DNA of 35,461 nucleotides. It comes from a virus. Taxonomy: Duplodnaviria > Heunggongvirae > Uroviricota > Caudoviricetes. Location of the stretch: IMG/VR virus record IMGVR_UViG_2778261527_000008; one strand, given 5' to 3'. A program made the translations under genes and the position numbers. The notes under the pieces were generated by a model, which ran no database searches, was not told where the DNA came from, and worked only from the letters and a program-made list of their open reading frames with translations. Positions 7,783 through 33,960 of this stretch are shown here, in pieces (the stretch's first letter is position 1; each line of letters begins with the position of its first letter).

Positions 7783-8388
7783 TTATTTAGAGGACTTACA
7801 TTTTATCGGAAAAAGTTCTCCATCGTCAACCGACATAAAGAACTCTGCCTTAATCCCGTACTTCTTCAACCGTGAATAATATGTACCCCGACTAATATCA
7901 ACCTTGCGCAGCACTTCGAAGAACTCTTTAGGATTCCTGTAATAGTGGCTATATCGCACGTTAGCGAGTTCTACAAACAATTCCCTTGTATCACCATAGC
8001 CTTTCTTGAAAGCCACGTTACGATAGCGTGTAATGGCATGATTCAATCTCTTCTGTTTAAGCACTTCCCTGATCGGCTTCCACTGCAACCGATAGATAGG
8101 ACCGTCATCAATGCGATAATAACGCTTGATATCAAAATCAAACCAATCTCGGACTCTCCGAAACTCTGTATGTGATGTTCTATGCTTCTTAAAGAAGTTG
8201 TGAACGTCTCTATAGCCATTATCACGGTAAAATTCTATTAAAATCTCTTTCGCTTCCTCACGGCTAAACCCAGATGTTGTGTAATCGGTCTTTAAGTGCT
8301 TATGTTTTACTGGCAAACGATATTCATGATCGGTACAACAAGACAAGGCTAATTCTACTTCATCTCTTTGTTGCTGATTAATTAGCAT
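7783..8388 (-). CDS. hypothetical basic protein with C-terminal HTH-like segment
   Basis: 201-aa ORF; Arg/Lys/Tyr-rich; ISRGTYYSRLKKYGI resembles an HTH recognition helix. Confidence 0.45.
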   Translation of the reverse strand: MLINQQQRDEVELALSCCTDHEYRLPVKHKHLKTDYTTSGFSREEAKEILIEFYRDNGYRDVHNFFKKHRTSHTEFRRVRDWFDFDIKRYYRIDDGPIYRLQWKPIREVLKQKRLNHAITRYRNVAFKKGYGDTRELFVELANVRYSHYYRNPKEFFEVLRKVDISRGTYYSRLKKYGIKAEFFMSVDDGELFPIKCKSSK

Positions 8389-8474
8389 ACACCCTCCTTA
8401 AATCTTAATACCGTATTTATCAAAATATAAACAATTTAATAAATACCTTCATATTTCGTAATGAGGGTAATTAC

Positions 8475-10382
8475 ATGAAACTGATTTCTAATAAGGCAAA
8501 ATTAAAAAAGATTCTCAGAAATGCAGCCAAATATATTACGCCACCGCCTAAACTCCTTCCATCGGAATGGTGCGAAGCGAATCTAACGCTAGTCGATGGT
8601 CCTCGTGCTGGGGATAAAGTTAAATTGCTGTCATTTCAGAAAGGCATGATTGATGCTCCTTTCCTTGAGAAGAAAAAGAAGTACGTTTTTTGTACGAGTG
8701 CGCAGATCGGAAAGACGACCATCATGTCAGGGATCATGTTTAACCAGATGGCAAACGATCCGTGTAATATCATTATCGGGCAAAGTACCGCTAAAGAAGT
8801 GGCTATGTACTTGAATACTAAGATCCGTCCTTCTATTGAAGCATGTCCGGCATTACAGGAAGTGGTAACAGATAAGAATGATCGTAATGCGGTAAACAAC
8901 AATAACCAGATTCAGCTAAAAACAAACCATTTCCTTTACATGGTTTCTTTGACCAGTCCTTCAAGTTTGCGCGGGCGTACTGCCAAGTTAGGGATTGTAG
9001 ACGAATGCGACGCAGCAACAATCACCGAAGAAGGTTGCCCGGTGGCACTAACTGCAAACCGTTTAACTACCTTTGGTGATGAAGCTCGATTGATTGTTTC
9101 TAGTACCCCGACCAATAAGCTGGGAATCATTAACCAGCAATGGTTATCAAGTGATATGCGTATGTTTTTTGTTCCGTGTCCTCATTGCGGGGAACACCAG
9201 GTGATCGAGTGGGAAAACGTTCAATTTGAATGGCGTAACATTGATGGTAAGAACTTACCCGATCCTGATACCGCTCGTTATATTTGCCCCCACTGTAAGA
9301 ACGCATGGACAGAAGGGGAACGAATCAGGGCAGTAGCGCAAGGCGAGTGGAGAGCAACCCGTGAAAGTGAAGTAGCAGGATTCTGGATCAGTCGTCTGTA
9401 TTCACCTTTCAGCACGATCCGCGCTTGTGTGGTTGATTTTAGTCATGCGTGGCAATCCTTTGATTTACAATCCTTTTTTAACACCGTGTTAGGCAAGGTA
9501 TACGACGATCAGGACACGGCAGTAGAAGCAAATGAACTGGAACAACTCAAAACAGATGTTTCTATCGAGAATATCCCTGATGACGTGATTTTCTTGTGTG
9601 CGGGTACTGACCAGCAATTAGATCGCGCAGAAACTACGATCATGGGCGTGGCAAAGGATAAGATTTATATTCTGGATCACCGCAGCTTTTACGATCATAA
9701 CTGTGAACGATATGAATCACCTGTATGGGATAGATTAATCAACTTCCATAAAACCAAATTTACTACTGTATCGGGTGATCGTGTTCCTATGCTCGCCAGC
9801 TTCCTTGATACATCGAACGGTCGATTCACTCAAGCTGGATACCGTATTTGCGGCAAGTGGAAGAACTTACACGCTATCAAAGGTAGTTCTGCTGGTAACG
9901 CTCCGATCATTCCGGTTAAACCTACCCGCACAGGTGGTCATGAATTGCTTATGCTGGGCGTTAACGTTGGGAAATCCGCTGTTCGTGAAATGCTGGTTAG
10001 AAACCTGAAAGATAATCCTCATATTGGCTTAGAAATATCAGAAACCATTCCTGATGATTATCTCGATCAGCTTTTGAGTGAATCCATCAAGCGTACTACT
10101 ACTGGCGTGCGTTGGGTGAAAAATCCAGGTAGTACCCGAAACGAGGCTCTCGACTGTCTGGTTTATAGCTATGCTGCTTCTCGCTACGTTCTTTCAAAAA
10201 TGTCATGGGATAAACTCATTGCAATGAAAGACAGCTTAAACCGTGTTGTCGAAGAATCCGTAGAAGCTCCTAAATCGCAATCTGACGAGCAAATCGAAGA
10301 AAATAAGCCAATCACACGACCACAACGTAAAAACATCGCCAGACGCCCAAATAGAGGCCGTAGCTGGGTAACATCGTTCTAA
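8475..10382 (+). CDS. terminase large subunit, lambda GpA family
   Basis: 635 aa, size and motifs (zinc-finger-like CPHCG...CPHC segment) consistent with GpA-type terminases; GAGGG RBS. Confidence 0.8.
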
Positions 10383-14714: not shown

Positions 14715-15005
14715 ATGTTCAAATTATCAGAATCACAATTAAATCGAATGTTTAAAAGTGCTCCTGTATTTTCGGTGGAAGGTGGTAAATCAATTCGTGC
14801 TTATCATGAAATTACTACTACCGACGAATCGGGGGTAATGACAGAAACAGAATTTCTATTCTGTCGTGAGGGAGACTTAAAGCAAGGTGATATTGTCACA
14901 GTAGAAAACCAGCGTTTCAAAGTTCAATACGTTAAGCGCAATGGTGACAATACTTGTGATTGCTTTATCACTTTAGCAGGGGGTACACATGCTCGCTACC
15001 GTTAA
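14715..15005 (+). CDS. head-tail adaptor / head completion protein (candidate)
   Basis: 96-aa ORF directly after capsid gene, AGGGGG RBS; synteny only. Confidence 0.4.
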   Translation: MFKLSESQLNRMFKSAPVFSVEGGKSIRAYHEITTTDESGVMTETEFLFCREGDLKQGDIVTVENQRFKVQYVKRNGDNTCDCFITLAGGTHARYR

Positions 15006-15411
15006 TAATATGCCGAGACTGAAAATCAAACGCGCCTTGCAAGATATTATCGAACAAGATTTAGGTCTGGCTTTAAACGTAGAACAAACTCAGCAAGGCT
15101 TTAGTGATGACGTGGTTTGTTGGATTACTGGCATGAATGAGACTTACACAAGGGTCCGTGGCGGTAATGCAATGCAAGCTGAATGCGTTATCGAAATGCA
15201 GTTATATTCTCAGATTCATGAAACGAAAATTCATGAGGGTATTTGCCAGATAATCCAGATTCAGCCAGATAACCCACGATTTAAAGATTTGGGCTTCTCT
15301 ATTTCAGATATCACTCCAGTAGCTTCTAATACCGATTATGACGATGATTCTAGTGATGGGGGTATCGTTGGGACACTTAGCCTTAAATTTTCTTATCTAG
15401 CGCGTTTTTAA
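14989..15411 (+). CDS. head-tail joining or tail completion protein (candidate)
   Basis: 140-aa ORF overlapping previous stop by 17 nt; synteny only. Confidence 0.35.
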   Translation: MLATVNNMPRLKIKRALQDIIEQDLGLALNVEQTQQGFSDDVVCWITGMNETYTRVRGGNAMQAECVIEMQLYSQIHETKIHEGICQIIQIQPDNPRFKDLGFSISDITPVASNTDYDDDSSDGGIVGTLSLKFSYLARF

Positions 15412-15420
15412 GGGGTAATA

Positions 15421-16254
15421 ATGAATATTACACAAGATAACTTAGATATTTTTACGGGGTCGCATGTTGAAGTCTCCGTTTCTACTATGGTCGATAGCCA
15501 GCCGGACTTTTTCGATCCTAGTTTTAGTTCTATTGAGAACGTCGCAGCATTCCCTACGCTAACCGAATCCACAGAGATTGAAACTCTGGAAGAGTACGAT
15601 CAGGACGCTACGGGGAAACTTGCTGGTTATCGTAGACTGGAACCGACAACACTCACATTAAACCGTGTTCTTGACGATGAACATCAAGCAATGTTGATGA
15701 AAGCGGTAGGGGATAAAACACCTTTACGCTTCCGTATGTTCTATGTTGTGAACTCTGGCTATAGTGCTGCTAACACTGGTTACTATGTCATCTATGACGC
15801 TTATGTCACTAGTCACAAAACCCGTGGCGCAGATAACAAAGCTGTAACACTGGAATTTAAACTTGAACCAGATGGCGGGATTTTGGCAAGGGGGATTGCT
15901 ACCGAAGGCCGGATCTTACGTCAGGGTGATTTTGGTTTGGGTGCTGGTGTAAATCCATTCACGGGTCCGATTGACAGCGAGGCATTAGCCGGAAACCGTT
16001 TCGTAACTTACAAGGGAACTGCTAGCGGTAATCCATATTCAACCGACACAGCATTAATTCACCTTCAAGCTAATGAGCATGGCGCATGGCAATTAACCTG
16101 TAATACTTCTGGCGCACCACGTTTACGCGTCCGAAATATTCAGGAAAACGGTCGCTCTGAATGGATCAAGGTATATTCCACCAATGAGAAACCGACACCT
16201 AGCGAAATTGGCGCAGTAGCTAAAACTGATAGAGTCGATTTCGGGGAGTATTGA
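15421..16254 (+). CDS. putative tail-tube-fold protein with C-terminal fiber-like segment (candidate side-fiber anchor/collar)
   Basis: 277 aa; N-terminal half has tube-protein-like pattern; C-terminal KPTPSEIGA motif shared with the downstream fiber. Confidence 0.35.
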   Translation: MNITQDNLDIFTGSHVEVSVSTMVDSQPDFFDPSFSSIENVAAFPTLTESTEIETLEEYDQDATGKLAGYRRLEPTTLTLNRVLDDEHQAMLMKAVGDKTPLRFRMFYVVNSGYSAANTGYYVIYDAYVTSHKTRGADNKAVTLEFKLEPDGGILARGIATEGRILRQGDFGLGAGVNPFTGPIDSEALAGNRFVTYKGTASGNPYSTDTALIHLQANEHGAWQLTCNTSGAPRLRVRNIQENGRSEWIKVYSTNEKPTPSEIGAVAKTDRVDFGEY

Positions 16255-25544: not shown

Positions 25545-25964
25545 ATGCTAAAAACTAGGCTTATCACCGATTACATCAATTCTTTAATAGGTCAGGAGTT
25601 CGTTCAGGGTGAGAATGATTGCAATCTCATTGCATGTAAGATCATCGATATTCTCGCTGGTACTGACCTATATAATTCTCTTTATAAAAAATATTCAACT
25701 AAAGAAGAAGGCTTGAAAATCTGCAAAGAATTAAGCGGGTATTCAAATATCCTTCAACCAATTAAGAAACATTTCAAATTAGTCACTGATGATTTACAGG
25801 ACGGCGACTTACTGGTCACAGCCCACAAATTAGGAAACCGTAATTATTATTCCGTAGTTCCTCATTATTCCGGTTATGGCCTCGTTGAAGAAGATGGTAT
25901 CTGGATGACCATTCCTGTTTCAGACATTGACTATGAACAAGTTTATAGATTCGGGGGTGAATAA
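25545..25964 (+). CDS. tail tip protein with NlpC/P60-like Cys/His motif (gpK C-terminal-like)
   Basis: ATG at 25545 with GGAGG RBS; GENDCNLIA and downstream His; 139 aa. Confidence 0.35.
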   Translation: MLKTRLITDYINSLIGQEFVQGENDCNLIACKIIDILAGTDLYNSLYKKYSTKEEGLKICKELSGYSNILQPIKKHFKLVTDDLQDGDLLVTAHKLGNRNYYSVVPHYSGYGLVEEDGIWMTIPVSDIDYEQVYRFGGE

Positions 25965-28900
25965 TGGGATTTGAAATATTAGTAGGCGCGGTTATTGCTG
26001 GTGCGTCTGCTGGGATGGCTGCTGCTGCAACATTTTCTGTTATGACCGCAGTCGCTATCGGTATGGCTGCTGGTGCAATGACCTTGATCGCTTCCACTGT
26101 AGGCGCACCAAAAACACCGAAAGTACAAAGCCCAGATAATGCGGTGACACTAGGAACATCAAACGATCCGAAGACAGTATTACCCGTTCTTTTCGGTACT
26201 ACCCGCACGGGTGCAATCTGCGTTTACAAGGCAATTTCTAAGCAAGAAAACAATAAGTTAGTGCAAATCTTCGCTATTGCCGAGGGTGAAATCGACCATT
26301 ACAAAGCACTCTTTATTGATAATAAAAATGTTCTTGTTGGTAAGAACATGACGATCCGTGATGGTATTCTCGATAAGGGCAACATTAAAGAAGAATATCG
26401 TAAAGTATTAGAAGTCGAGTTCCGCACGGGCAAGAATCCTAACACCGCTTTGTCGCTGGCAAAACGTCACTTAGGGTCAGACTGGAACGACAACTACAAA
26501 GGCAATGGTATTGCAACCATGTGTATTGTGTTACGTCGTGATGACAAATCTCTTGCTGCTGGTGTTGATATTCTCCAGCCTAATAGCCAGGTGGCAGTAG
26601 ACGTTTGCGGGTTAAAGATTCGTAACCTTGAAACCAATGCTATTGAGGCTAGCACTAACGGCGTGGACCAGATTTTCCATTATCTGACAAATACAAAATA
26701 TGGTCTTAGTGTACCAATTGAAAACATCAACGTTGATTCATTCCTGAAAGTACGTAAACAAGTACGCCAGATGGACCTACATTCAAACGGTGCATGTGAT
26801 CCGAACGCCAGCTTTAAAGAGAACTTGACCAGTCTTATGCAGACTTTCGGCGGGGTGATGTTCGAATCCTTCGGAAGAATTACCCTGAAACTGGATGCTC
26901 CTGATATTGTTAAGCATACCTTCAATGAAGACAATATTATGATGGGTAAGGTATCACTGAAAACAGGTGGCACTAACGGTTATTTCAATACCATTAACGC
27001 GATGTATCAAGAACCATCAATCGACTATTCAGAACAAATGCTACGTTATCCGGCTGATGCTGAAAACGATGCTACTATTCGTCAAGATGGTCGAATTATC
27101 GCTAAAGATATTGAATATCGTTTTGTTAAGTCTAAAGCCCAGATTGATAAACTTGCGAGTATTGAACGAAATAAATCTCGTATCACTCAGGTTATCAGCT
27201 TTATGACTACTGACGCATTCACTGCCGAAGTTTGGGATGTTATCAGCGTAACCTATGATGAATTGAAACTGAATAATTCCTTATGGCGTATTACTGCAAT
27301 TGATCGCTCGATTGATTCTGGTATTGCTGGGATGATGACTATCACCGCTACAGAATATAATTCTCAGGTTTATACTGACCTGAACTATGCGGCTAACCCA
27401 GATAACCGACCAAGTGGTTTACCGGATTCAATGACAGTACAGAAGCCTACTAATTTCAGAATTAAGGCAACTGGCGAGACGATTTACGGTAAAAACGTTA
27501 CTTTGACATGGGATGCGCCGGAAGATTTTAACCGTTATGGTTTTCAGATTGATTACCGTGTAAGCGGATCACCTAACTGGATTAAGCTGGGACAGACTTC
27601 ACAGCAAATTTTCAGTGTCAATGCACTGGCAAAAGATCGTTCTTATGATTACCGAGTTTGTGCTTTCGGTATCATCGCTCGATCCGATTGGGTAGAACTG
27701 GTTAACCAGAATCCGACTGTTACCTATGAATTGCCGACTCCGGTTATTCGAATCAAAAATCAGGGTAGCACGCCTGGTACTTTCGAAGGCAATGATCTGA
27801 TTATCGAATGGGAAAATCAGCAACAATTAGATGTTGAGATCAACGGTGAAACTAACAAGTTTAGTGACCTGTTTGAAGCATACATTATCAAGGTGACTAA
27901 CAAGGCTGGTAAGTCTATTCAGTACCGTACCCGCGATCCTGAATCATGGACTTATACGCTTGATATGAACCAGTTTAACGGCCTTTCGCGTCAACTGACG
28001 GTAGAAGTATCAGCTAAGGGCTATAACAACTCAGAGAGCGCCCCAGCGCGTTTAGTGGCTATCAACCCACAACATAAGCCAATGAAAGGTTTTAGTGCGC
28101 GTGGTGGCTTTAATACTGCGTTTGTTAGCTGGGCGGATGACGTAGAACATGACTATGCAGGGTCAATCATCCAGTATGCAACCGACAACACTTTCTCAGA
28201 TGCAAGGGCAGTAAGTACGAATAGTGTTAGCCATACTTCCTTTGATATTGCTGACGGTGATTATTATATCCGTGGTGCTCACTACGATATTTTCGGTATG
28301 GATGATGCTGTTTGGTCTGAACCGTATTTCATGCAAATGAAATCTACCATTAGCTGGGACGATCAGGACAAAGAAGCACTGGAAGATCTGATCGGTTTAC
28401 AAGATCGCTTAGATGAAACTATCGCGGATGCTATTAAGCAAGCTGGCGCTAATGCCGATGCTAAAATTGATGCAATGCATAAGCAAATCACTACCGAGAC
28501 GGGTAAAACTGTTCAAGCCTCAGCCGATACCTTAAAGAGTCTGATTGCTTCTGGTGATAAGGCAAGTTCAACTAAGATTGATCAGGTTAAAGCTGAACTG
28601 AAAGGCGATATCACCAAAGAAGTTAGCGCCTCCGCTACAACCCTGAAACAAGCTATTGCTACCAGTGAAGCAGCAAGCGCAAGTAAGATTGACCAAGTTC
28701 GGGTAGAAATGGATGGCAAGATTGCTGGTGTGAATCAGGAAGCGGACGTTAAGATCGATGCTTTGAAAGGAACCATTAACAGCAAATACAATCTAGCGGT
28801 TAATGCAGATGGTCGCGTGGCTGGTATTCACATGAGCGCAACTAACGATCCGGCACAACCGACTAAAATCATCTTTACGGCTGATAAAATTGCTGTAGCT

Positions 28901-29740
28901 CCGCAGAACGGGACCGATGTTTGCCCGTTTGGTATCGAAGGTAACAAGGTTTATCTCGATAATGCGATGATTCGTAATGCTGCAATTGGCACAGCCCAGA
29001 TTAATGATGCGGCAATTACTACCGCTAAGATCGGCAATGCTGCAATTAACAGCGCGAAGATTCAGGACGGGGCGATCACCAATGCGAAGATCGTAAACGG
29101 TGCTATTGATAACGCCAAAATTGGTAACTATATCCAGTCTTCCAACTGGAACGGATCAACCGGATGGCATATCAACAAGAACGGGTCCGCTACGTTCATG
29201 AACGCTACCGTTAAAGGTAATATCACGGCTGATTCTGGTACTCTGAACAACGTCACGATTAACTCTAGCTGTGTTATTAAGGGTATGCTTGAAGCTACTC
29301 AGGTTAAGGGTGATTTCGTTAAGGTGATTGGTCGTAAGTTCCCACACCGTGATGTTAACGTTGATAATGGTTATGGCGGCTATCCGCAAGGTACAGTAAC
29401 CGTTCGCGTTGAAGATGATCACAAGTTCGATCGTCAAATCGTTATTCCGGCGATTAGTTTTGGTGGATTGCGAGCGCGTGAAGGGTCGAACAATAATACC
29501 TATTACGACACCTGTCGCCTGATTGTTCGTAAGAATGGGTCAGAGTTGTATAATAGGGCGTATGGCGGTAATACTGGTCTTTACTCAGGTGTTATTGATA
29601 TGCCAGCGGGTAAAGGTGCTGTGACCTTGACCTTTGAAGTGCAATCAAGCGCAATCAACAACTGGACGCCTAGCACATGGATCAGTGATTTAACTGTAAT
29701 GGTAACTAAAAAAGCCACTACGGGTATTACTGTTTCTTAA
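25964..29740 (+). CDS. central tail fiber / host specificity protein, lambda J-like
   Basis: 1258 aa; C-terminal ~160 aa aligns by eye with lambda J receptor-binding region (DDHKFDRQIVIP.., VIDMPAGKGAVTLTF.., DLTVMVTKK..GITV); unusual 50-aa hydrophobic N-terminal extension. Confidence 0.8.
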   Translation: MGFEILVGAVIAGASAGMAAAATFSVMTAVAIGMAAGAMTLIASTVGAPKTPKVQSPDNAVTLGTSNDPKTVLPVLFGTTRTGAICVYKAISKQENNKLVQIFAIAEGEIDHYKALFIDNKNVLVGKNMTIRDGILDKGNIKEEYRKVLEVEFRTGKNPNTALSLAKRHLGSDWNDNYKGNGIATMCIVLRRDDKSLAAGVDILQPNSQVAVDVCGLKIRNLETNAIEASTNGVDQIFHYLTNTKYGLSVPIENINVDSFLKVRKQVRQMDLHSNGACDPNASFKENLTSLMQTFGGVMFESFGRITLKLDAPDIVKHTFNEDNIMMGKVSLKTGGTNGYFNTINAMYQEPSIDYSEQMLRYPADAENDATIRQDGRIIAKDIEYRFVKSKAQIDKLASIERNKSRITQVISFMTTDAFTAEVWDVISVTYDELKLNNSLWRITAIDRSIDSGIAGMMTITATEYNSQVYTDLNYAANPDNRPSGLPDSMTVQKPTNFRIKATGETIYGKNVTLTWDAPEDFNRYGFQIDYRVSGSPNWIKLGQTSQQIFSVNALAKDRSYDYRVCAFGIIARSDWVELVNQNPTVTYELPTPVIRIKNQGSTPGTFEGNDLIIEWENQQQLDVEINGETNKFSDLFEAYIIKVTNKAGKSIQYRTRDPESWTYTLDMNQFNGLSRQLTVEVSAKGYNNSESAPARLVAINPQHKPMKGFSARGGFNTAFVSWADDVEHDYAGSIIQYATDNTFSDARAVSTNSVSHTSFDIADGDYYIRGAHYDIFGMDDAVWSEPYFMQMKSTISWDDQDKEALEDLIGLQDRLDETIADAIKQAGANADAKIDAMHKQITTETGKTVQASADTLKSLIASGDKASSTKIDQVKAELKGDITKEVSASATTLKQAIATSEAASASKIDQVRVEMDGKIAGVNQEADVKIDALKGTINSKYNLAVNADGRVAGIHMSATNDPAQPTKIIFTADKIAVAPQNGTDVCPFGIEGNKVYLDNAMIRNAAIGTAQINDAAITTAKIGNAAINSAKIQDGAITNAKIVNGAIDNAKIGNYIQSSNWNGSTGWHINKNGSATFMNATVKGNITADSGTLNNVTINSSCVIKGMLEATQVKGDFVKVIGRKFPHRDVNVDNGYGGYPQGTVTVRVEDDHKFDRQIVIPAISFGGLRAREGSNNNTYYDTCRLIVRKNGSELYNRAYGGNTGLYSGVIDMPAGKGAVTLTFEVQSSAINNWTPSTWISDLTVMVTKKATTGITVS

Positions 29741-29759
29741 AAATTTAATTTTAATAATT

Positions 29760-29799
29760 AATCCCGCTTAATTCTTTTGAGTTAGGCGGGATTATTTTT
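29760..29799 (+). terminator. rho-independent terminator after J-like gene
   Basis: aatcccgcttaa ... ttaggcgggatt followed by attttt. Confidence 0.55.
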
Positions 29800-29844: not shown

Positions 29845-30123
29845 ATGACTGAAATTATATATGGCGGTATCGGTGTTATCGCCTTAATTTGCGGTGGTCT
29901 TTGGAGACTTCACCGAAATCAATTAGCAACTGAAAATAGATTGTCGAAATTGGAATCCAGCGACGCATTGTTAAACCAGAAGTTTGAGACGATGCAGAAT
30001 AACCATACTCAGATTGCTGAACGTGTTTACCAAATGGAACAAACACTACACGGTATAGAGAAGAAAGTGGTTGCGATGGACGCCAAATTTGACCAAGTTC
30101 TCGACATACTCAAACAAAAATAA
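29845..30123 (+). CDS. membrane-anchored coiled-coil protein (holin/antiholin or spanin-like candidate)
   Basis: 92 aa; N-terminal TM IIYGGIGVIALICGGLW then coiled coil; GGGGG RBS. Confidence 0.35.
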   Translation: MTEIIYGGIGVIALICGGLWRLHRNQLATENRLSKLESSDALLNQKFETMQNNHTQIAERVYQMEQTLHGIEKKVVAMDAKFDQVLDILKQK

Positions 30124-30141
30124 TAATAAAGGGGTGAATAT

Positions 30142-30312
30142 ATGAAGAATAAACTTAAGAAATATTTTGGTTATCTCTTGATTGTCGCCCTCACTTATAA
30201 CGTAGCTATTAGACCTCTGCTAACGTCCTTTGGGCTTGAACTCCCGGCTATGACCGTGGATGAACAATTGCTAAGGACACTGGCGGGGGTCTTTTCGTTA
30301 TTAGGGGGCTAA
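30142..30312 (+). CDS. small membrane protein (56 aa), holin-like candidate
   Basis: ATG with AAAGGGG RBS; hydrophobic core YLLIVALTYNVAI; stop overlaps next start region. Confidence 0.3.
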   Translation: MKNKLKKYFGYLLIVALTYNVAIRPLLTSFGLELPAMTVDEQLLRTLAGVFSLLGG

Positions 30313-30313
30313 C

Positions 30314-30997
30314 ATGGCAACCAGTACCAATAAACGAAACGCTCTAAGGACTAAGAAAGCGTTACGGCAATGGTCTGAAAAGGCAACCGATACATTCGAA
30401 AAGGCACTAGGGGAAGGGGCGATCTTTGCTTCCAGAGCACTCCAGAAGAAGATTAACAAGAATGTTGATAGACCTACTCGATGGACTCAGCAAGCTGTAG
30501 GTAATACCAACTACAAGAACCGATCAGGGACGAGACACCAAATCTTCATCAAGGGCGCAAGGGATAAGGACAAGAAGATCGGCAGTCAGGATGACTATCT
30601 GAAACACTATTTCGATGGGGGAAAAATCAATAAGCTAGTTCCAATCGCCAACGGTAAGGTCTTAGACGCCCACGGGAACATTAAGGCCATCAAAGGCGGT
30701 AAGATGATGCGTAACATCGAAAACGGCAACTTCATCAAGGTAGAGAACAAGGAAGGGACTTTTATCATGAAGAAGTACAAGCCTAAGAAATCCCGAACCA
30801 AACGCGCTAAGAATGGATCGGCGGTGGCAAAACGTCGCTTAGAGAAACGCATACAGAAACAGAGTAAGCGAATCGTTGCCGTTAAATCGGATAAAATTTC
30901 TACTCGTTATTCGACGCTAGGATCGTGGGAAAGCAACGAGGAAATGATGCTTAAGAACATTAATAAGCACATTAAATCGCGCATGAGATACGTTTAA
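30314..30997 (+). CDS. highly basic hypothetical protein (Lys/Arg-rich)
   Basis: 227-aa ORF with GGGGG RBS; function not recognisable. Confidence 0.45.
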   Translation: MATSTNKRNALRTKKALRQWSEKATDTFEKALGEGAIFASRALQKKINKNVDRPTRWTQQAVGNTNYKNRSGTRHQIFIKGARDKDKKIGSQDDYLKHYFDGGKINKLVPIANGKVLDAHGNIKAIKGGKMMRNIENGNFIKVENKEGTFIMKKYKPKKSRTKRAKNGSAVAKRRLEKRIQKQSKRIVAVKSDKISTRYSTLGSWESNEEMMLKNINKHIKSRMRYV

Positions 30998-31035
30998 TCC
31001 ATAAATACCCTCATAGAATCTTATGGGGGTATAAC

Positions 31036-31383
31036 ATGGCTAAAAATATTTTCACTGAATTTCCTACTTATCCGGTCGATCAGCTTTCCGGTATTTTTAT
31101 TAATGGCATTAGTCCAGAATCAATGACTTATGATTTTGAGGCGAAGAGAGTTAAACATAAACAATATAAAGAATGTATCCGTGACCATGAAAAGGGGACC
31201 GTGTTTTGTGTCGCTACATTGGCTAAACGTCCTAAGTATCGTTTTCGTGTCGGGCAAGAAGTCGATGTAGTTAATCCTTATAGCTTTAATTGTCTGGGCG
31301 ATGCACGCGCGGTGTGTGTAGGTACTGCTCCTTATTATATCAAGGGTATGCGCTTTATTGGTTATATCTTCGAAATGATCTAA
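31036..31383 (+). CDS. hypothetical protein
   Basis: 115-aa ORF with GGGGG RBS. Confidence 0.45.
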   Translation: MAKNIFTEFPTYPVDQLSGIFINGISPESMTYDFEAKRVKHKQYKECIRDHEKGTVFCVATLAKRPKYRFRVGQEVDVVNPYSFNCLGDARAVCVGTAPYYIKGMRFIGYIFEMI

Positions 31384-31392
31384 GGGGGTAAT

Positions 31393-31746
31393 ATGTTAAG
31401 CAAACATTTTTCTCGCAAGGAATTTAAATGTAAATGCGGAAAATGTGATTATGATACAATCGACGCTGAATTACTGGTAATTCTTGAGGATGTACGAGAG
31501 CACTTCGGTAAACCAGTGATTATTAACAGTGGCAACCGTTGCCCGACTCATAACAAGAATGTAGGCGGGGCAGCCAATAGCTATCACGTTCGAGGCCGTG
31601 CGGCTGACATTGTTATCAAGGGTGTCTCACCTGATATTGTTCATGCTTATCTTGATGGGAAATATCCTACTCAATACGGCTTAGGAAAATATAAAACATT
31701 TACGCATATCGATTCCAGATCAAAAAAATCACGGTGGAATGGATAA
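31393..31746 (+). CDS. endolysin, zinc peptidase M15 family (cell-wall peptidase)
   Basis: 117 aa; INSGNRCPTHNKNVGGAANSYHVRGRAADIV and later His/Asp fit the M15 zinc-binding signature. Confidence 0.65.
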   Translation: MLSKHFSRKEFKCKCGKCDYDTIDAELLVILEDVREHFGKPVIINSGNRCPTHNKNVGGAANSYHVRGRAADIVIKGVSPDIVHAYLDGKYPTQYGLGKYKTFTHIDSRSKKSRWNG

Positions 31747-31752
31747 AACAAA

Positions 31753-31776
31753 AGCGCCTCTGGTGGGCGCTTTTTT
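31753..31776 (+). terminator. rho-independent terminator after endolysin
   Basis: agcgcc-tctggtg-ggcgct followed by tttttt. Confidence 0.55.
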
Positions 31777-31955
31777 GTTAGAATATGCTGGCGACGTTAG
31801 CTATATTTCTGACCATTTTTTCATTATAGACAAATATACCGCAGACGATAAAGTCGTTTTTGACGAAGTAGATCCGTCTCTGGTTGAAGTAATGAAAGAA
31901 CCGGAAGACCTAGAGCTTGATTTAAGCCAATTATAGACTCTCTAACGCAATTAAA

Positions 31956-31980
31956 TTAAAAAGGGGTACGGATGTACCCC
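31956..31980 (-). terminator. terminator hairpin for leftward transcripts
   Basis: ggggtac-ggat-gtacccc with A tract on + side (U tract on minus strand). Confidence 0.45.
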
Positions 31981-32018
31981 TTAAAGCGTTTGGTTCGTTA
32001 TACGGCGATTTAGGCCGC

Positions 32019-32276
32019 CTATGATTTATTTTCTTGTTCTATGAAAATCTTTCTCACCTCATCAGAATAAATGTCTAGTGATTCCTCATAACATTTTCTG
32101 TATTCATCGTAATTACTGGTGGTCTTTTGACATAGCAATTTCAATGTCTTATGTGCTCCATCAATGAAAGCATCTTCTCTATAGGTTAGCGGTCTACGCA
32201 TTTCTTGGTCTACGGTTGCCAATGCCAAGCAAGAATTCATAGATAAAATCAAACCTAAAATCTTAATCATCTTCAT
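32019..32276 (-). CDS. small secreted protein
   Basis: signal-peptide-like N-terminus MKMIKILGLILSMNSCLALA; 4 nt downstream of recombinase stop. Confidence 0.35.
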   Translation of the reverse strand: MKMIKILGLILSMNSCLALATVDQEMRRPLTYREDAFIDGAHKTLKLLCQKTTSNYDEYRKCYEESLDIYSDEVRKIFIEQENKS

Positions 32277-32280
32277 TAGC

Positions 32281-33960
32281 TTAAATTCCAAATTCTTGTA
32301 ATGGACCTGGTATTTCTTCTTCTGGTTTCCAGTTCTTATCTGTCAGCATGTCTAAACATGGATGCAGAACAAGCCCGTTACTCTCCAGAATCTGCCTATC
32401 ATTGATAGTCTTCAAATCAACGAAGATCCGGCCTTTCCTCGGTCCTCTTGAATTTTCTATTACAACTCTCTGGGTCTTGCCATCGATGTATTCCAGTACA
32501 AACAAGTTTTTGTACTTGTCAATCCTGCTACACCCGATCCGTTTTAGAGCTTGCTTAATCTTAAACCGGACCTTAATGCGATCCTCGTTGTAAACATCTT
32601 CTAAATCAAATTCTGCGAGCTTCTCCCAGCCTTGAGAGTCAACAGAATACATTTCCTCTTCTGCCATCTTAAGTTGATTGTAGAGTGTTTCACGCTCGCT
32701 ATTGAGGGTAGTAATCTGATCGGCTAGCTCCTTCGTTGCTCCTGTCATAGCAGAAAGGGTAATCAGGTTATCAATCTTGCGTGATATTTCATCAATCTGT
32801 ACTTTCAAAGCCGGAACCGGATTAGCCTTATCTTCAGCAATCCAGATTTTATCAGCCAGCAATTGCAATACAGCTTTCTCTAATTGGTCGCCGCGAAAAC
32901 TCCAGTTTGTATGCACACATTCAATACGACTAGAGCGCATTGCATCGCATGAATAACGATATTGGTTAGGCCGTCTGTTTGTTCCTTTCACCTTAACCAT
33001 AGCGGAACCGCAATGTTCACATTTCAATAGACCAACACCACTAAGCAAGGGAATAGGTTTAGCTTCTTCTTTGTCTCCAAAGTTACATGCTCTAACACCA
33101 ATGCTTTTCTTAAGGTGATAAAACTCAGCGTCATCTAGCACACGAGGATAATAATCCTTTAACTCATACTTAACGCCATCTACAGAGATTTCCTTGATAC
33201 CAATCAAAGCGCGGGTATGGAACAACCTTTCAATCATTGCCCGTGACCAGTTTGAATGCCTCTTGTGACTTGCGGCTGGTGGTGGTGTGTATGTCGCGTT
33301 AAGGTGATCCAGTATCTCGGCGGTTGACCGTCCATTCCTGCGTAATTCCACAACTTCCTGAACAATAGGGAAGAAGACCGGATGAGGAAGCACATAACCA
33401 GATGTGGTATCAGTCCACCACATATTCTTTCCAATTTCCTCGATTGCAACAGCCGGATTTTGTGGATTTTCTTGATGAGCTTTAATCTTAATCAGTGCGC
33501 TTGAGTTAGTACGATTGCGCTTAGTCTGGCTTTCCTCATTACCACGGATGAATAAAAGGATGGAGAACATCAGGTCCATCGGGTTAGCGGTAACAGTATC
33601 AAGCGAGTAGATCTTGTTATCCATGCCAGTAACAATGGTTATCCCCCTACGGATGATTGAAAGGAATAACTCCTGCGCACTGACAATATCGGCACGGGAT
33701 AAACGGTCCAAGTTTTCGATGAATAGCCAGCTACCAACAGGAACGGATCTACCTATTGCATCAAGGAAACGAGATAGCGCCCCTGTTTTGGAGTTAGCAC
33801 CCTTAAACGCAGATACACCCAGATCCTGATAATCATTTACCAGTTCAAGGTCATACTTTACCGCAATCTCTCTAGCCATCCTGATTTGTCGTTCATAACT
33901 CGAACCATCATTCTGACGCATAGACGAGAAGCGAATATACGAATACAGTTTAGTTTTCAT
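32281..33960 (-). CDS. large serine recombinase (integrase/resolvase family)
   Basis: 559 aa from ATG at 33960; N-terminal resolvase catalytic motif YIRFSS..Q; Cys-rich zinc ribbon CEHCG...C..C; coiled-coil segment. Confidence 0.8.
   Translation of the reverse strand: MKTKLYSYIRFSSMRQNDGSSYERQIRMAREIAVKYDLELVNDYQDLGVSAFKGANSKTGALSRFLDAIGRSVPVGSWLFIENLDRLSRADIVSAQELFLSIIRRGITIVTGMDNKIYSLDTVTANPMDLMFSILLFIRGNEESQTKRNRTNSSALIKIKAHQENPQNPAVAIEEIGKNMWWTDTTSGYVLPHPVFFPIVQEVVELRRNGRSTAEILDHLNATYTPPPAASHKRHSNWSRAMIERLFHTRALIGIKEISVDGVKYELKDYYPRVLDDAEFYHLKKSIGVRACNFGDKEEAKPIPLLSGVGLLKCEHCGSAMVKVKGTNRRPNQYRYSCDAMRSSRIECVHTNWSFRGDQLEKAVLQLLADKIWIAEDKANPVPALKVQIDEISRKIDNLITLSAMTGATKELADQITTLNSERETLYNQLKMAEEEMYSVDSQGWEKLAEFDLEDVYNEDRIKVRFKIKQALKRIGCSRIDKYKNLFVLEYIDGKTQRVVIENSRGPRKGRIFVDLKTINDRQILESNGLVLHPCLDMLTDKNWKPEEEIPGPLQEFGI

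Follow-up and report, generated by a model that had tools for sequence, protein, structure and literature searches.

How a prophage with no obvious spanin pair, and with its endolysin gene set apart from the genes for small membrane proteins, brings about lysis of its host is the question raised by the segment between positions 29845 and 31936 of the window (the whole stretch of 35,461 nucleotides that was analyzed). The window is the prophage of a temperate siphophage, integrated in hicB of Escherichia coli and found in ~1% of complete E. coli genomes. The segment closes the block of virion genes on its right-hand side; the original prediction had called it an atypical lysis region, in which two small membrane proteins, a 227-residue and a 115-residue protein precede an M15 endolysin. 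The six open reading frames of the segment, these five among them, were found exactly where they had been placed, and the same six genes are called by PGAP in the 100%-identical chromosome of E. coli CE0007a.

The gpJ-like tail tip gene J (25964–29740, plus strand) lies immediately upstream of the operon. It is followed by an intrinsic terminator (29759–29794, plus strand; a 16-bp stem with 6 GC pairs, then a T run), beyond which a separate or attenuated transcription unit begins. A hairpin terminator at 31961–31982 (9-bp stem, 5 GC pairs) separates the other end from the convergent integrase-side genes. The genes in between, all on the plus strand, are referred to as g92, g56, g227, g115, the endolysin gene and orf65. 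The intergenic gaps across all six range from −8 to 38 nt, the first five genes each have a strong GGGG(G) ribosome-binding site upstream, and g227 starts 1 nt past the stop codon of g56, indicating translational coupling of the two. Five genes are under purifying selection (dN/dS = 0.06–0.21, wherever dS was unsaturated).

The gene order is kept in at least seven lineages, from E. coli, Salmonella, Providencia, another enterobacterium and phage DCP80. Downstream of J, the E. coli, Salmonella, Providencia and L013 lineages and DCP80 share the order TM-coiled-coil gene, ~55-residue TM gene, Z-like gene, gene of ~100–115 residues, endolysin. As this order is conserved in independent lineages, the reading frames are genes and not chance occurrences. 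The last slot is filled by three non-homologous enzyme types among the relatives (M15_3; a T4-lysozyme type in DCP80; Peptidase_M15_4 in L013 and L014), the mark of an endolysin slot. The four upstream genes of L013 touch or overlap one another, with a 29-nt overlap between those of the g92 and g56 type, and the endolysin gene is 200 nt distant; such coupling could mean, against the reading preferred below, that the four genes share one function. Nucleotide and protein searches with g227, g115 and g92 against 50,697 phage records gave nothing useful except the DCP80 lead, and NCBIfam and PADLOC yielded zero matches for the unknown genes of the operon. The layout is a fixed arrangement of the whole prophage family and not a single oddity. 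The arrangement is real, as had been claimed, but the name composite late operon, for lysis plus tail completion, suits it better than atypical lysis region.

The 117-residue endolysin (31393–31746) is predicted to be a soluble zinc peptidase of the Peptidase_M15_3 type. It matches Pfam PF08291 with an E-value of 8.8e-28 (97 bits against a cut-off of 23.2), PHROG 894 'endolysin' over its full length (E 1.7e-45) and PDB entry 1LBU (E 3.5e-6), and its sequence contains the H-x6-D (SYHVRGRAAD) and THID motifs that correspond to LAS-type zinc ligands. There is no hydrophobic segment and no signal or SAR sequence, so a holin is needed for the enzyme to reach the wall. The two genes that separate it from the membrane-protein genes, as originally noted, have no match to a lysis family.

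The most plausible source of the holin activity is g56 (30142–30312), ~1.1 kb upstream of the endolysin gene in the same operon. The 56-residue product has one clear hydrophobic stretch, no Cys and a net charge of +3. It was compared with annotated holins that adjoin endolysins, one of which is noted as 'Holin of 3TMs'; these references were retrieved with a family consensus as BLAST probe, and all statistics were calculated on database sequences. The g56 family (8 sequences) aligned with six phage genes annotated as holin at an hhalign probability of 95.5% (E 1.5e-8, score 48.2), and the five enterobacterial sequences alone at 60% (E 8.7e-5, score 28.5). None of 150 composition-preserving shuffles of the core columns reached either score (maximum 20.2; z 8.5 and 17.3). 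In a Pfam HMM scan of g56 and its homologues no holin model was matched, even at E-values up to 10; the PHROG match is to family 2024, of unknown function (E 5e-3; DCP80 homologue E 4e-4). Residues 7–53 align to the TM2-loop-TM3 core, covering holin positions ~71–123, and of the three TM segments the protein retains two at most. By profile comparison g56 is related to the 'Holin of 3TMs' (GTA-type) family, of which it is a truncated version, and is the best holin candidate, in keeping with the earlier view of the membrane-protein genes as holin-like.

With the members of this family (PF11351 by name; e.g. the holin of phage DSL-LC05 and gp32 of Roseobacter phage CRP-810) g56 shares an aromatic-N/Q-F/V...P motif, the proline-containing loop and the G-rich last helix. 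The endolysin is encoded in the same operon in GTA-type holins too, and in DSL-LC05 the same holin type occurs alongside an M15_3-like peptidase and a small coiled-coil membrane protein. The rcc00556 holin of RcGTA is presumably a member of the 'Holin of 3TMs' family. The rcc00555-rcc00556 pair is needed for lysis and GTA release (PMC5026251). The differences are nevertheless considerable. The 3TM holins have 132–152 residues and carry an N-terminal helix, a helical linker with a VNKxEA motif and a basic C-terminal tail, whereas g56 lacks all three parts. It is instead preceded by a separate 92-residue TM-plus-coiled-coil gene, and two genes of non-lysis type lie between it and the endolysin, which the 3TM holins adjoin.

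The preceding gene, g92 (29845–30123), encodes a bitopic membrane protein with a single N-terminal hydrophobic helix (KD17 2.02; Gly-rich TM at residues 4–20), a conserved juxtamembrane motif W(R/K)LHRNQ and a coiled coil of ~65 residues. From the distribution of charges an N-out/C-in topology is predicted by the positive-inside rule. Its family is confined to prophages of E. coli, Salmonella and Providencia, with a DCP80 homologue at a probability of 68%; it matches PHROG 12015, of unknown function (E 4e-5), and in Pfam only weak coiled-coil-type matches were obtained. g92 probably either partners the holin or supplies the N-terminal 'half' of a split one. A split is suggested by the shape, though not the sequence, of g92, which is that of the N-terminal part lacking in g56, and by the combined length of g92 and g56, 148 residues compared with 132–152 in full-length holins. 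No similarity to the N-terminal halves of the holins (hhalign Prob 0.2%) or to small proteins adjoining the reference holins was found, so the argument for a split is one of architecture. In DCP80 an endonuclease-VII-like gene lies between the g92- and g56-type genes. An endonuclease gene between two gene halves is known from 'genes in pieces'. We entertain, as a tentative proposal, that g92 and g56 are a 3TM holin split into two genes, possibly via a homing endonuclease that is still present between the halves in DCP80. On metagenome contig L021 a single 99-residue gene of the 3TM-holin type (Prob 88.5%) lies directly upstream of the Z-like gene.

It is unlikely that g92 and g56 are lysogenic-conversion or superinfection-exclusion membrane proteins and that the true holin is encoded elsewhere, for example by an unannotated 57-residue membrane ORF at 2515–2688. 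Conversion and exclusion genes such as cor, llp and lom are often located after tail-fiber genes, and g92 and g56 do come directly after J, behind a terminator; neither matches a Pfam holin family, and the ORF at 2515–2688 is small and holin-shaped, with a good ribosome-binding site. That ORF is, however, uncalled by PGAP and ~6 kb away from the endolysin gene on the circular map, and the relation of g56 to annotated holins stands well above the shuffle controls. Its coupling to g227 also argues against an exclusion gene, as does the persistence of the g92/g56 pair where the receptor-binding end of J differs, unlike receptor-specific exclusion genes. A Cor/Llp-like lipoprotein signal is absent, and PADLOC gave no match.

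The gene that follows, g227 (30314–30997), had been singled out for an extremely Lys/Arg-rich product, which the composition bears out: 57 of the 227 residues are K or R (25%), with a net charge of +38, a pI of 10.7 and no hydrophobic segment. Over residues 28–181 the protein matches PHROG 1924 'minor tail protein' (E 3.7e-4), a match found for 10 of the 15 family members (best 2.4e-33), and the family aligns with gp44 of Rhodobacter phage RcCronus, also a 'minor tail protein' (hhalign Prob 96%, E 4.8e-9), although the basis of this label is not documented in the RcCronus paper. We assign g227 to the PHROG 1924 family on these similarities. A bridging member (P0033) matches phrog_27 'tail completion or Neck1' at 5.5e-3 and Pfam Minor_tail_Z (PF06763) at 0.11, both weak, and the named Foldseek/BFVD matches of g227, all weak, are HK97-gp10 or tail-component proteins. 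The AF2 model (pLDDT 71.6) suggests a folded alpha/beta core that resembles tail completion proteins, with basic helices at residues 159–183. g227 itself had no match to the Pfam families of tail completion proteins (Minor_tail_Z, HK97-gp10_like), and its family showed no relation to lambda gpZ (hhalign Prob 0.1%) or to the 140-residue neck protein of the window. The family is very rare (6 clusters in a set of 5.8 billion proteins; 12 representatives in one of 1.84 billion), the protein is highly divergent between otherwise similar prophages, and homologues of 183–188 residues have lost much of the basic helix region. The sole match of the profile among PDB sequences, adenovirus pre-protein VI, was rejected as spurious.

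Taken together, g227 is probably a tail completion protein with an HK97 gp10/lambda gpZ-like fold and a basic insertion, and its product would be located in the virion. The original suggestion of a nucleic-acid-binding or injected protein rather than a lysis factor is in line with this, a virion protein of the tail completion type being the most likely assignment. The tail-completion-type protein of 80alpha is positioned in the tail lumen against the DNA end (PMC11661146), a location that fits a nucleic-acid-binding or injected role for g227.

The position of the gene is exceptional. Tail completion proteins of the Neck1 type (lambda gpZ, HK97 gp10, SPP1 gp16.1, 80alpha gp51) are encoded by neck genes between head closure and tail terminator, whereas g227 is found after J, inside the lysis operon. 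The neck module of the window consists of a gpFII-like head-closure gene (14715–15005; 96 residues, PF05354 Phage_attach E 4.4e-5), a gene for 140 residues (14989–15411, plus strand) and the first tail-tube-like gene (15421–16254; 277 residues), whose product matches PHROG 158 'major tail protein', as does a 157-residue protein. Only one gene thus lies between head closure and the first tail-tube-like gene, compared with two (Z and U) in the lambda order FII-Z-U-V, which leaves one slot empty in this phage.

RcCronus, whose gp44 is the homologue of g227 with the strongest support, shares the head and packaging layout, namely a gpA-type terminase, a W-position protein, a fused protease-capsid and, immediately ahead of the tail protein, an FII-like protein. 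Its gp44 gene is also out of the neck position, as the last gene before cos; the endolysin and putative holin genes are downstream of the terminase genes. RcCronus encodes no homologue of g92, g56 or g115, and gp44, unlike g227, has no neighbors of these types, so the Z-like gene is independent of the membrane proteins. The g227 homologue of L021 is likewise displaced from the neck. For p143 of T5 (PF25747; 255 residues, compared with 227 for g227; low-confidence mixed helical models) a location on the tail tip rather than in the neck has been described (10.1101/2024.10.16.618446). Tail-tip proteins of T5-like type (DTP-pb9 domain) are present in the phage, and a tip location would fit the post-J position of g227; the parallel is confined to position, as the g227 family has no sequence relationship to p143 (hhalign Prob 1.7%). 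Comparison of g227 with the N-terminus of the tape measure in five lineages gave no co-variation of their identities.

g115 (31036–31383) encodes a small, mostly beta protein of 115 residues, for which a low-confidence AF2 model was obtained (pLDDT 66). In the enterobacterial lineages and DCP80 it is always found directly downstream of the g227-type gene (DCP80 homologue, hhalign Prob 92.8%), and it is also present in L013. Only 16 clusters exist, from E. coli, Salmonella and Providencia, and there was no match in Pfam, PHROG or NCBIfam. It is possibly a partner or chaperone of g227, or another neck or tail protein.

Passage of the outer membrane was addressed by searching for spanins. A six-frame lipobox scan of the whole window with all start codons, and a relaxed scan of the plus strand of the cassette in seven lineages, revealed no spanin-type lipoprotein ORF and no unimolecular spanin of the T1 gp11 type (N-terminal lipoprotein signal and C-terminal TMD). 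The scan of the window did return a lipobox candidate at 8141–8043 (minus strand), which was rejected: it has no basic N-terminus, and the 201-residue gene in which it is embedded has no TMD, looks DNA-binding and is far from the lysis genes. Judged from its sequence, the phage has no recognizable spanin, in agreement with what had been predicted. Unlike the lambda S-R-Rz/Rz1 cassette it has no embedded, overlapping or separate lipoprotein gene, and unlike both lambda and phiKT it has structural genes in among those for lysis. Spanins are absent from about 15% of the phages that infect Gram-negative bacteria; in at least one of these, phiKT, spaninless like the present phage, a cationic peptide (disruptin gp28) takes their place (10.1101/515445). 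By the criteria drawn from that work (<80 residues, soluble, amphipathic, highly cationic with a net charge of at least +4), no disruptin-type peptide was found in the operon: g56 is at +3 and has a TM, orf65 is at −11, and g227 has 227 residues.

We consider it quite unlikely that lysis is the function of all four genes ahead of the endolysin, with the cationic g227 (together with g115) replacing spanins as an outer-membrane disruptor, a large analogue of the phiKT disruptin whose tail likeness would be ancestral or misleading. g227 does always lie between the membrane-protein genes and the endolysin, whatever the type of the latter; the coupling in L013, the lack of spanins, the precedent of a cationic peptide in a spaninless phage and the charge and basic helices of the protein would all suit such a role, and the RcCronus homologue is three genes from the endolysin across cos. 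The protein is, however, four times the size of the disruptin and appears to have a folded alpha/beta core like that of tail completion proteins, and both the family annotation and the remote matches all point to tail and neck proteins. In addition, the neck gene set misses exactly a tail completion component, the shorter homologues dispense with much of the basic helix region, and gp44 of RcCronus has no membrane-protein neighbors. A variant is that g227 and g115 have a second job, the extremely cationic tail-completion-type protein being made in excess of the few copies that a virion requires, released through the holin lesion and destabilizing the outer membrane, a large disruptin-like factor recruited from a structural protein. 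If true, this would account for a gene that keeps its place between holin and endolysin in all lineages while the endolysin itself is readily exchanged; we regard it as decidedly improbable, and rate the two-gene split of a 3TM holin, tentative as that is, as the likelier of the two.

A very improbable alternative is that g92 is a short Rz-like inner-membrane spanin and g56 its non-lipoprotein outer partner, an unconventional two-component spanin. g92 combines a TM with a coiled coil, the two genes overlap in L013 like some spanin pairs, and weak, nearly full-length matches to the Rz-like spanin family phrog_739 were obtained (g92, E 0.036; the 153-residue DCP80 homologue, E 0.001). Similar E-values were seen with many unrelated coiled-coil families, and these matches are probably compositional. 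The charges of g92 and its homologues predict a cytoplasmic rather than a periplasmic coiled coil, 92 residues are short for spanning the periplasm, and g56, without Cys and hence without a lipobox, aligns to the holin core instead. Scarcely credible is a virion-associated M15 peptidase that degrades the wall during infection, with the whole post-J operon encoding virion or entry components: although the gene is co-transcribed with the tail-type g227 just downstream of the tail tip gene, and the enzyme that takes its place in DCP80 matches 'baseplate hub subunit and tail lysozyme' families as well, the M15 enzyme is small, single-domain and matched by PHROG 894 over its full length, there is no other endolysin candidate among the scanned ORFs of the window or in the PGAP annotation, a holin relative is present in the same operon, and non-orthologous replacement, here by free-standing genes for a lysozyme and for M15_4, is what endolysin slots typically undergo.

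With moderate confidence, we favor a single late operon that combines lysis and virion completion, with a putative holin, g56, and its probable partner, g92, a displaced tail completion gene, g227, and no spanin. g56 would supply the membrane core (TM2-loop-TM3) of a 3TM/GTA-type holin and is the candidate for the holin activity; g92, N-out with a cytoplasmic helical domain, would most likely form a two-piece holin with g56 or else regulate it. At a set time the two would make the inner membrane permeable, so that the soluble M15_3 peptidase would escape and cut the peptidoglycan cross-links. The g227 protein would be lodged in the tail, up against the end of the DNA and the tape measure, and be needed for infectivity and not for lysis, with g115 as a conserved partner. 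Rupture of the outer membrane would occur by mechanical failure or through a factor not yet recognized.

None of these findings overturns current models, but five genes that were formerly 'hypothetical' in ~1% of complete E. coli genomes and in many Salmonella gain testable assignments. A two-piece holin of the 3TM type would, if confirmed, reveal which part of the family forms the lesion. A tail completion gene outside the neck module calls for caution in position-based annotation of necks, and adds to the recent finding of a T5 tail completion protein that is not in the neck. Being temperate, without recognizable spanins and hosted by the genetically tractable E. coli, the phage also makes spanin replacement directly addressable by complementation with lambda Rz/Rz1.

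The region behind the endolysin is variable among the relatives. The last gene of the operon, orf65 (31739–31936), overlaps the end of the endolysin gene by 8 nt, lacks conservation among the relatives and probably falls outside the conserved core; its acidic product of 65 residues (pI 4.05, net charge −11) shares a 26-residue segment with the Inh protein of RB49-like phages, with both nucleotide and protein matches to inh.

The six open reading frames placed at 29845-31936 by the original prediction, which took this stretch for an atypical lysis region, were found at exactly the predicted coordinates: g92 (29845-30123, 92 aa), g56 (30142-30312, 56 aa), g227 (30314-30997, 227 aa), g115 (31036-31383, 115 aa), an M15 endolysin (31393-31746, 117 aa) and orf65 (31739-31936, 65 aa). 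The intergenic gaps over all six genes range from -8 to 38 nt, and a GGGG(G) ribosome-binding site lies ahead of each of the first five. The operon is bounded upstream by a strong terminator (29759-29794), located 3' of the gpJ-like tail tip gene, and downstream by a hairpin terminator (31961-31982). In every lineage examined, the same order was found 3' of a J-like gene: a TM-coiled-coil protein (~92-153 aa), a ~55-aa membrane protein, a g227-like protein, a protein of ~100-119 aa and an endolysin. These lineages include further E. coli prophages, several from Salmonella, Providencia, a distant enterobacterial prophage (L013/L014) and Escherichia phage DCP80, for which homology was seen by profile comparison (92.8% for g115, 68% for g92 and 47% for g56). 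The dN/dS ratios were 0.06-0.21 for all five genes, wherever dS was unsaturated. The operon genes are real and conserved, and annotation of the cassette lists every gene but the peptidase as 'hypothetical'.

The region combines a lysis part and a virion part in one late operon, and we infer the functions of its genes from homology and gene context. The lysis part would pair a cut-down 3TM-type holin (g56), probably acting with g92, with a soluble M15 endolysin, and the virion part would comprise a displaced tail completion protein (g227) and its partner g115. The original interpretation is supported overall. Lysis genes of the holin-endolysin kind, with no spanins, would here alternate with a tail completion gene, a new combination of known kinds of component.

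The 117-aa protein is a Peptidase_M15_3 enzyme (E 8.8e-28) that matches PHROG 894 'endolysin' (E 1.7e-45) and has no signal-like segment. Three unrelated enzyme types occupy the last cassette slot, namely M15_3 in the window, a T4-type lysozyme in DCP80 and M15_4 in L013, a kind of swapping that endolysin slots usually show. That the peptidase is instead a virion enzyme, encoded as it is next to virion-type genes, has a low probability; this and the other rival readings of g92, g56 and g227 are kept low because their support is positional or compositional. The strongly acidic orf65 overlaps the endolysin stop, and part of its stretch, especially 31836-31906 (71 nt, 26 residues), is ~90% identical to inh, which encodes the prohead protease inhibitor in RB49-like Krischvirus phages. 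The post-endolysin stretch varies among relatives, with UvsY fragments or UvsW-type helicases in place of orf65.

The g56 protein has a basic N-terminus and a hydrophobic stretch, and lacks cysteine. Library scans with g56 gave no match beyond PHROG 2024, a family of unknown function. In the metagenome contig L021 the g56 position is taken by a 99-aa protein, the C-terminal half of which resembles the 'Holin of 3TMs' family. A consensus of this family, used as a search probe only, retrieved 22 phage records, mostly annotated 'holin'. Six real genes from these records, one of them noted as 'Holin of 3TMs' and most adjoining an endolysin, formed the reference set. The g56 family (8 sequences) matched the six holins with a Prob of 95.5% (E 1.5e-8, score 48.2), the five enterobacterial g56 sequences alone with 60% (E 8.7e-5, score 28.5) and the L021 protein alone with 88.5% (E 2.7e-6, score 38.8). 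The top scores in 150 composition-preserving shuffles of the core columns were 20.2 and 19.5 (z = 8.5 and 17.3), and whole-alignment shuffles and reversal gave likewise low scores. The aligned portion of g56 corresponds to TM2-loop-TM3 (holin positions about 71-123); the N-terminal helix, linker and basic tail of the reference holins are absent from g56. Since the alignment is partial and the Pfam holin model does not match g56, we call it a truncated relative of the 'Holin of 3TMs' family rather than a member. We take rcc00556 to belong to the same Pfam family as the 3TM holins. Both lysis and the release of the gene transfer agent in Rhodobacter require the founding pair rcc00555-rcc00556 (PMC5026251).

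The g92 family is confined to these prophages, and g92 itself has a single, Gly-rich hydrophobic helix at the N-terminus. The flanks of this helix are acidic before and basic after (W-R/K-L-H-R-N-Q, invariant), and by the positive-inside rule g92 is predicted to be N-out with a cytoplasmic coiled coil. A three-TM holin with a cytoplasmic C-terminal tail would be expected to have this topology in its N-terminal helix and linker. The architecture is consistent with g92 and g56 being a 3TM holin split in two: together they have 148 residues, compared to 132-152 in full-length holins, a single 99-aa gene occupies the g92/g56 position in L021, and in DCP80 an endonuclease-VII-like gene lies between the g92- and g56-type ORFs. 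When compared with the reference holins' N-terminal halves and with the small proteins of neighbouring genes, g92 showed no similarity to either. Its matches were only to coiled-coil-type families and, weakly, to PHROG 739 'Rz-like spanin' (E 0.036, and 0.001 for its homologue in DCP80); on this basis g92 could be an unconventional spanin, a reading that we consider improbable. Also improbable is the proposal that g92 and g56 are exclusion proteins, given the holin similarity of g56. Two distant lineages have the endonuclease-VII-like (HNH-type) gene at the holin locus (8322-8789 in the DCP80 locus L009 and 872-1315 in L021, there immediately 5' of the single 99-aa holin), and it may be a mobile endonuclease targeting the holin site.

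A six-frame scan of the whole window with all start codons yielded no credible lipoprotein ORF. The cassettes from seven lineages, scanned on the + strand with relaxed criteria, gave nothing beyond pieces of known genes in the same frame and a single 35-aa ORF that is not conserved. The original prediction of 'no obvious spanin pair' was borne out by these alternative-frame searches. None of the operon ORFs fits the published search criteria for disruptins. In the absence of a lipoprotein or disruptin-type ORF, the prophage family is spaninless by current definitions, as are ~15% of phages of Gram-negative hosts (10.1101/515445).

The g227 protein is highly basic (25% Lys+Arg, net charge +38, pI 10.7), a composition that could suit a cationic outer-membrane disruptor; we hold this role to be unlikely, and the family relationships point to the tail. 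The family is very small (six 90% clusters among 5.8 billion proteins, and 12 representatives in a profile search of 1.84 billion). Residues 28-181 of g227 directly match PHROG 1924 'minor tail protein' (E 3.7e-4), as do 10 of the 15 family members, with a full-length match (2.4e-33) for the bridging member P0033. The latter also weakly matches phrog_27 'tail completion or Neck1' (5.5e-3) and, collinearly, Pfam Minor_tail_Z (0.11). The family profile matched gp44 'minor tail protein' of Rhodobacter phage RcCronus with a Prob of 96% (E 4.8e-9), and the result was reproduced. [quoted passage not shown] The named BFVD matches to the model were HK97-gp10 or tail-component proteins, weak throughout. 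[quoted passage not shown] No sequence similarity was detected between g227 and gpZ, T5 p143 or any PDB sequence.

Gene context fits the tail-protein reading: the window has one gene between the FII-like and first tail-tube-like genes, where lambda has Z and U. RcCronus has a similar head and neck layout, and there too the g227 homologue lies apart from the neck genes, in final position ahead of cos; in L021 the g227-type gene lies just 5' of the terminase genes. Overall, g227 is probably a tail completion-type virion protein. A g115 homologue directly follows the g227-type gene in all enterobacterial lineages and DCP80, and none was found in RcCronus; we leave g115 as a conserved partner of g227. 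Otherwise similar cassettes, such as those of the window (g227 at 30314-30997) and the relative L018 (=L015; 10001-10684), differ far more in the g227-type gene than in any other (30-36% identity, compared to 59-84% for g56 and 65-84% for the endolysin), which suggests possible allele replacement. The tape-measure N-terminus is similarly divergent (23-57%); no co-variation of the two was seen.

The operon region matches E. coli CE0007a at 100% identity, and a version of it occurs in 55 of 5,426 complete E. coli genomes, chromosomal in every case. The window is a prophage that interrupts hicB and encodes a large serine recombinase. Its head and packaging genes are lambda-like (gpA-type terminase, W-position gene, fused protease-capsid and gpFII-like protein), and those for the tail tip resemble their T5 or GTA counterparts (pb9-domain distal tail protein, gp84-N hub, DUF6950 and J-like protein). 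A small-terminase-like gene (1704-2258; PHROG 57, E 1.5e-11) and the gpA-type large terminase (8475-10382) are 6 kb apart, with Rha-type and other early-looking genes in between; in DCP80 and L021 the former is located 3' of the cassette or immediately before TerL. In the window the small-terminase-like gene is followed by a hairpin terminator and then by two small membrane ORFs, each with a good ribosome-binding site; they are unannotated, and PGAP calls neither. One has 33 aa, read from an internal ATG (2360-2461), and the other has 57 aa, with 2-3 hydrophobic segments, a KKDTK tail and a holin-like shape (2515-2688). The full-length ORFs (2288-2461 and 2515-2688) matched no family in a PHROG scan, nor did the latter give a match in PADLOC.

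The DCP80 record (PQ671644, 141 kb) is classified as a T4-like Gaprivervirus. Positions 1-26,300 carry the siphovirus-type structural module and the post-J cassette that the window prophage has, and past ~26 kb a small-terminase-like gene is followed by T4-like early genes such as motA; the record must be one of two things, a remarkable chimera or an assembly artefact. T-even-style fibre parts are found in the siphovirus-type prophage itself (16332-19862 and 20561-21067), with a 1176-aa fibre carrying a gp34 trimerisation domain and an S74 chaperone, and with a gp38-like adhesin. The fibre gene is flanked by two tail-tube-like genes (15421-16254 and 19919-20392). Two secreted-protein morons are present at the prophage ends (575-1345 and 32019-32291, both on the minus strand). 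One is a lysozyme-inhibitor LprI-family protein adjoining attL, a curious pairing with the prophage's own peptidase-type endolysin; the other is a 90-aa signal-peptide protein, the gene of which overlaps the integrase start.
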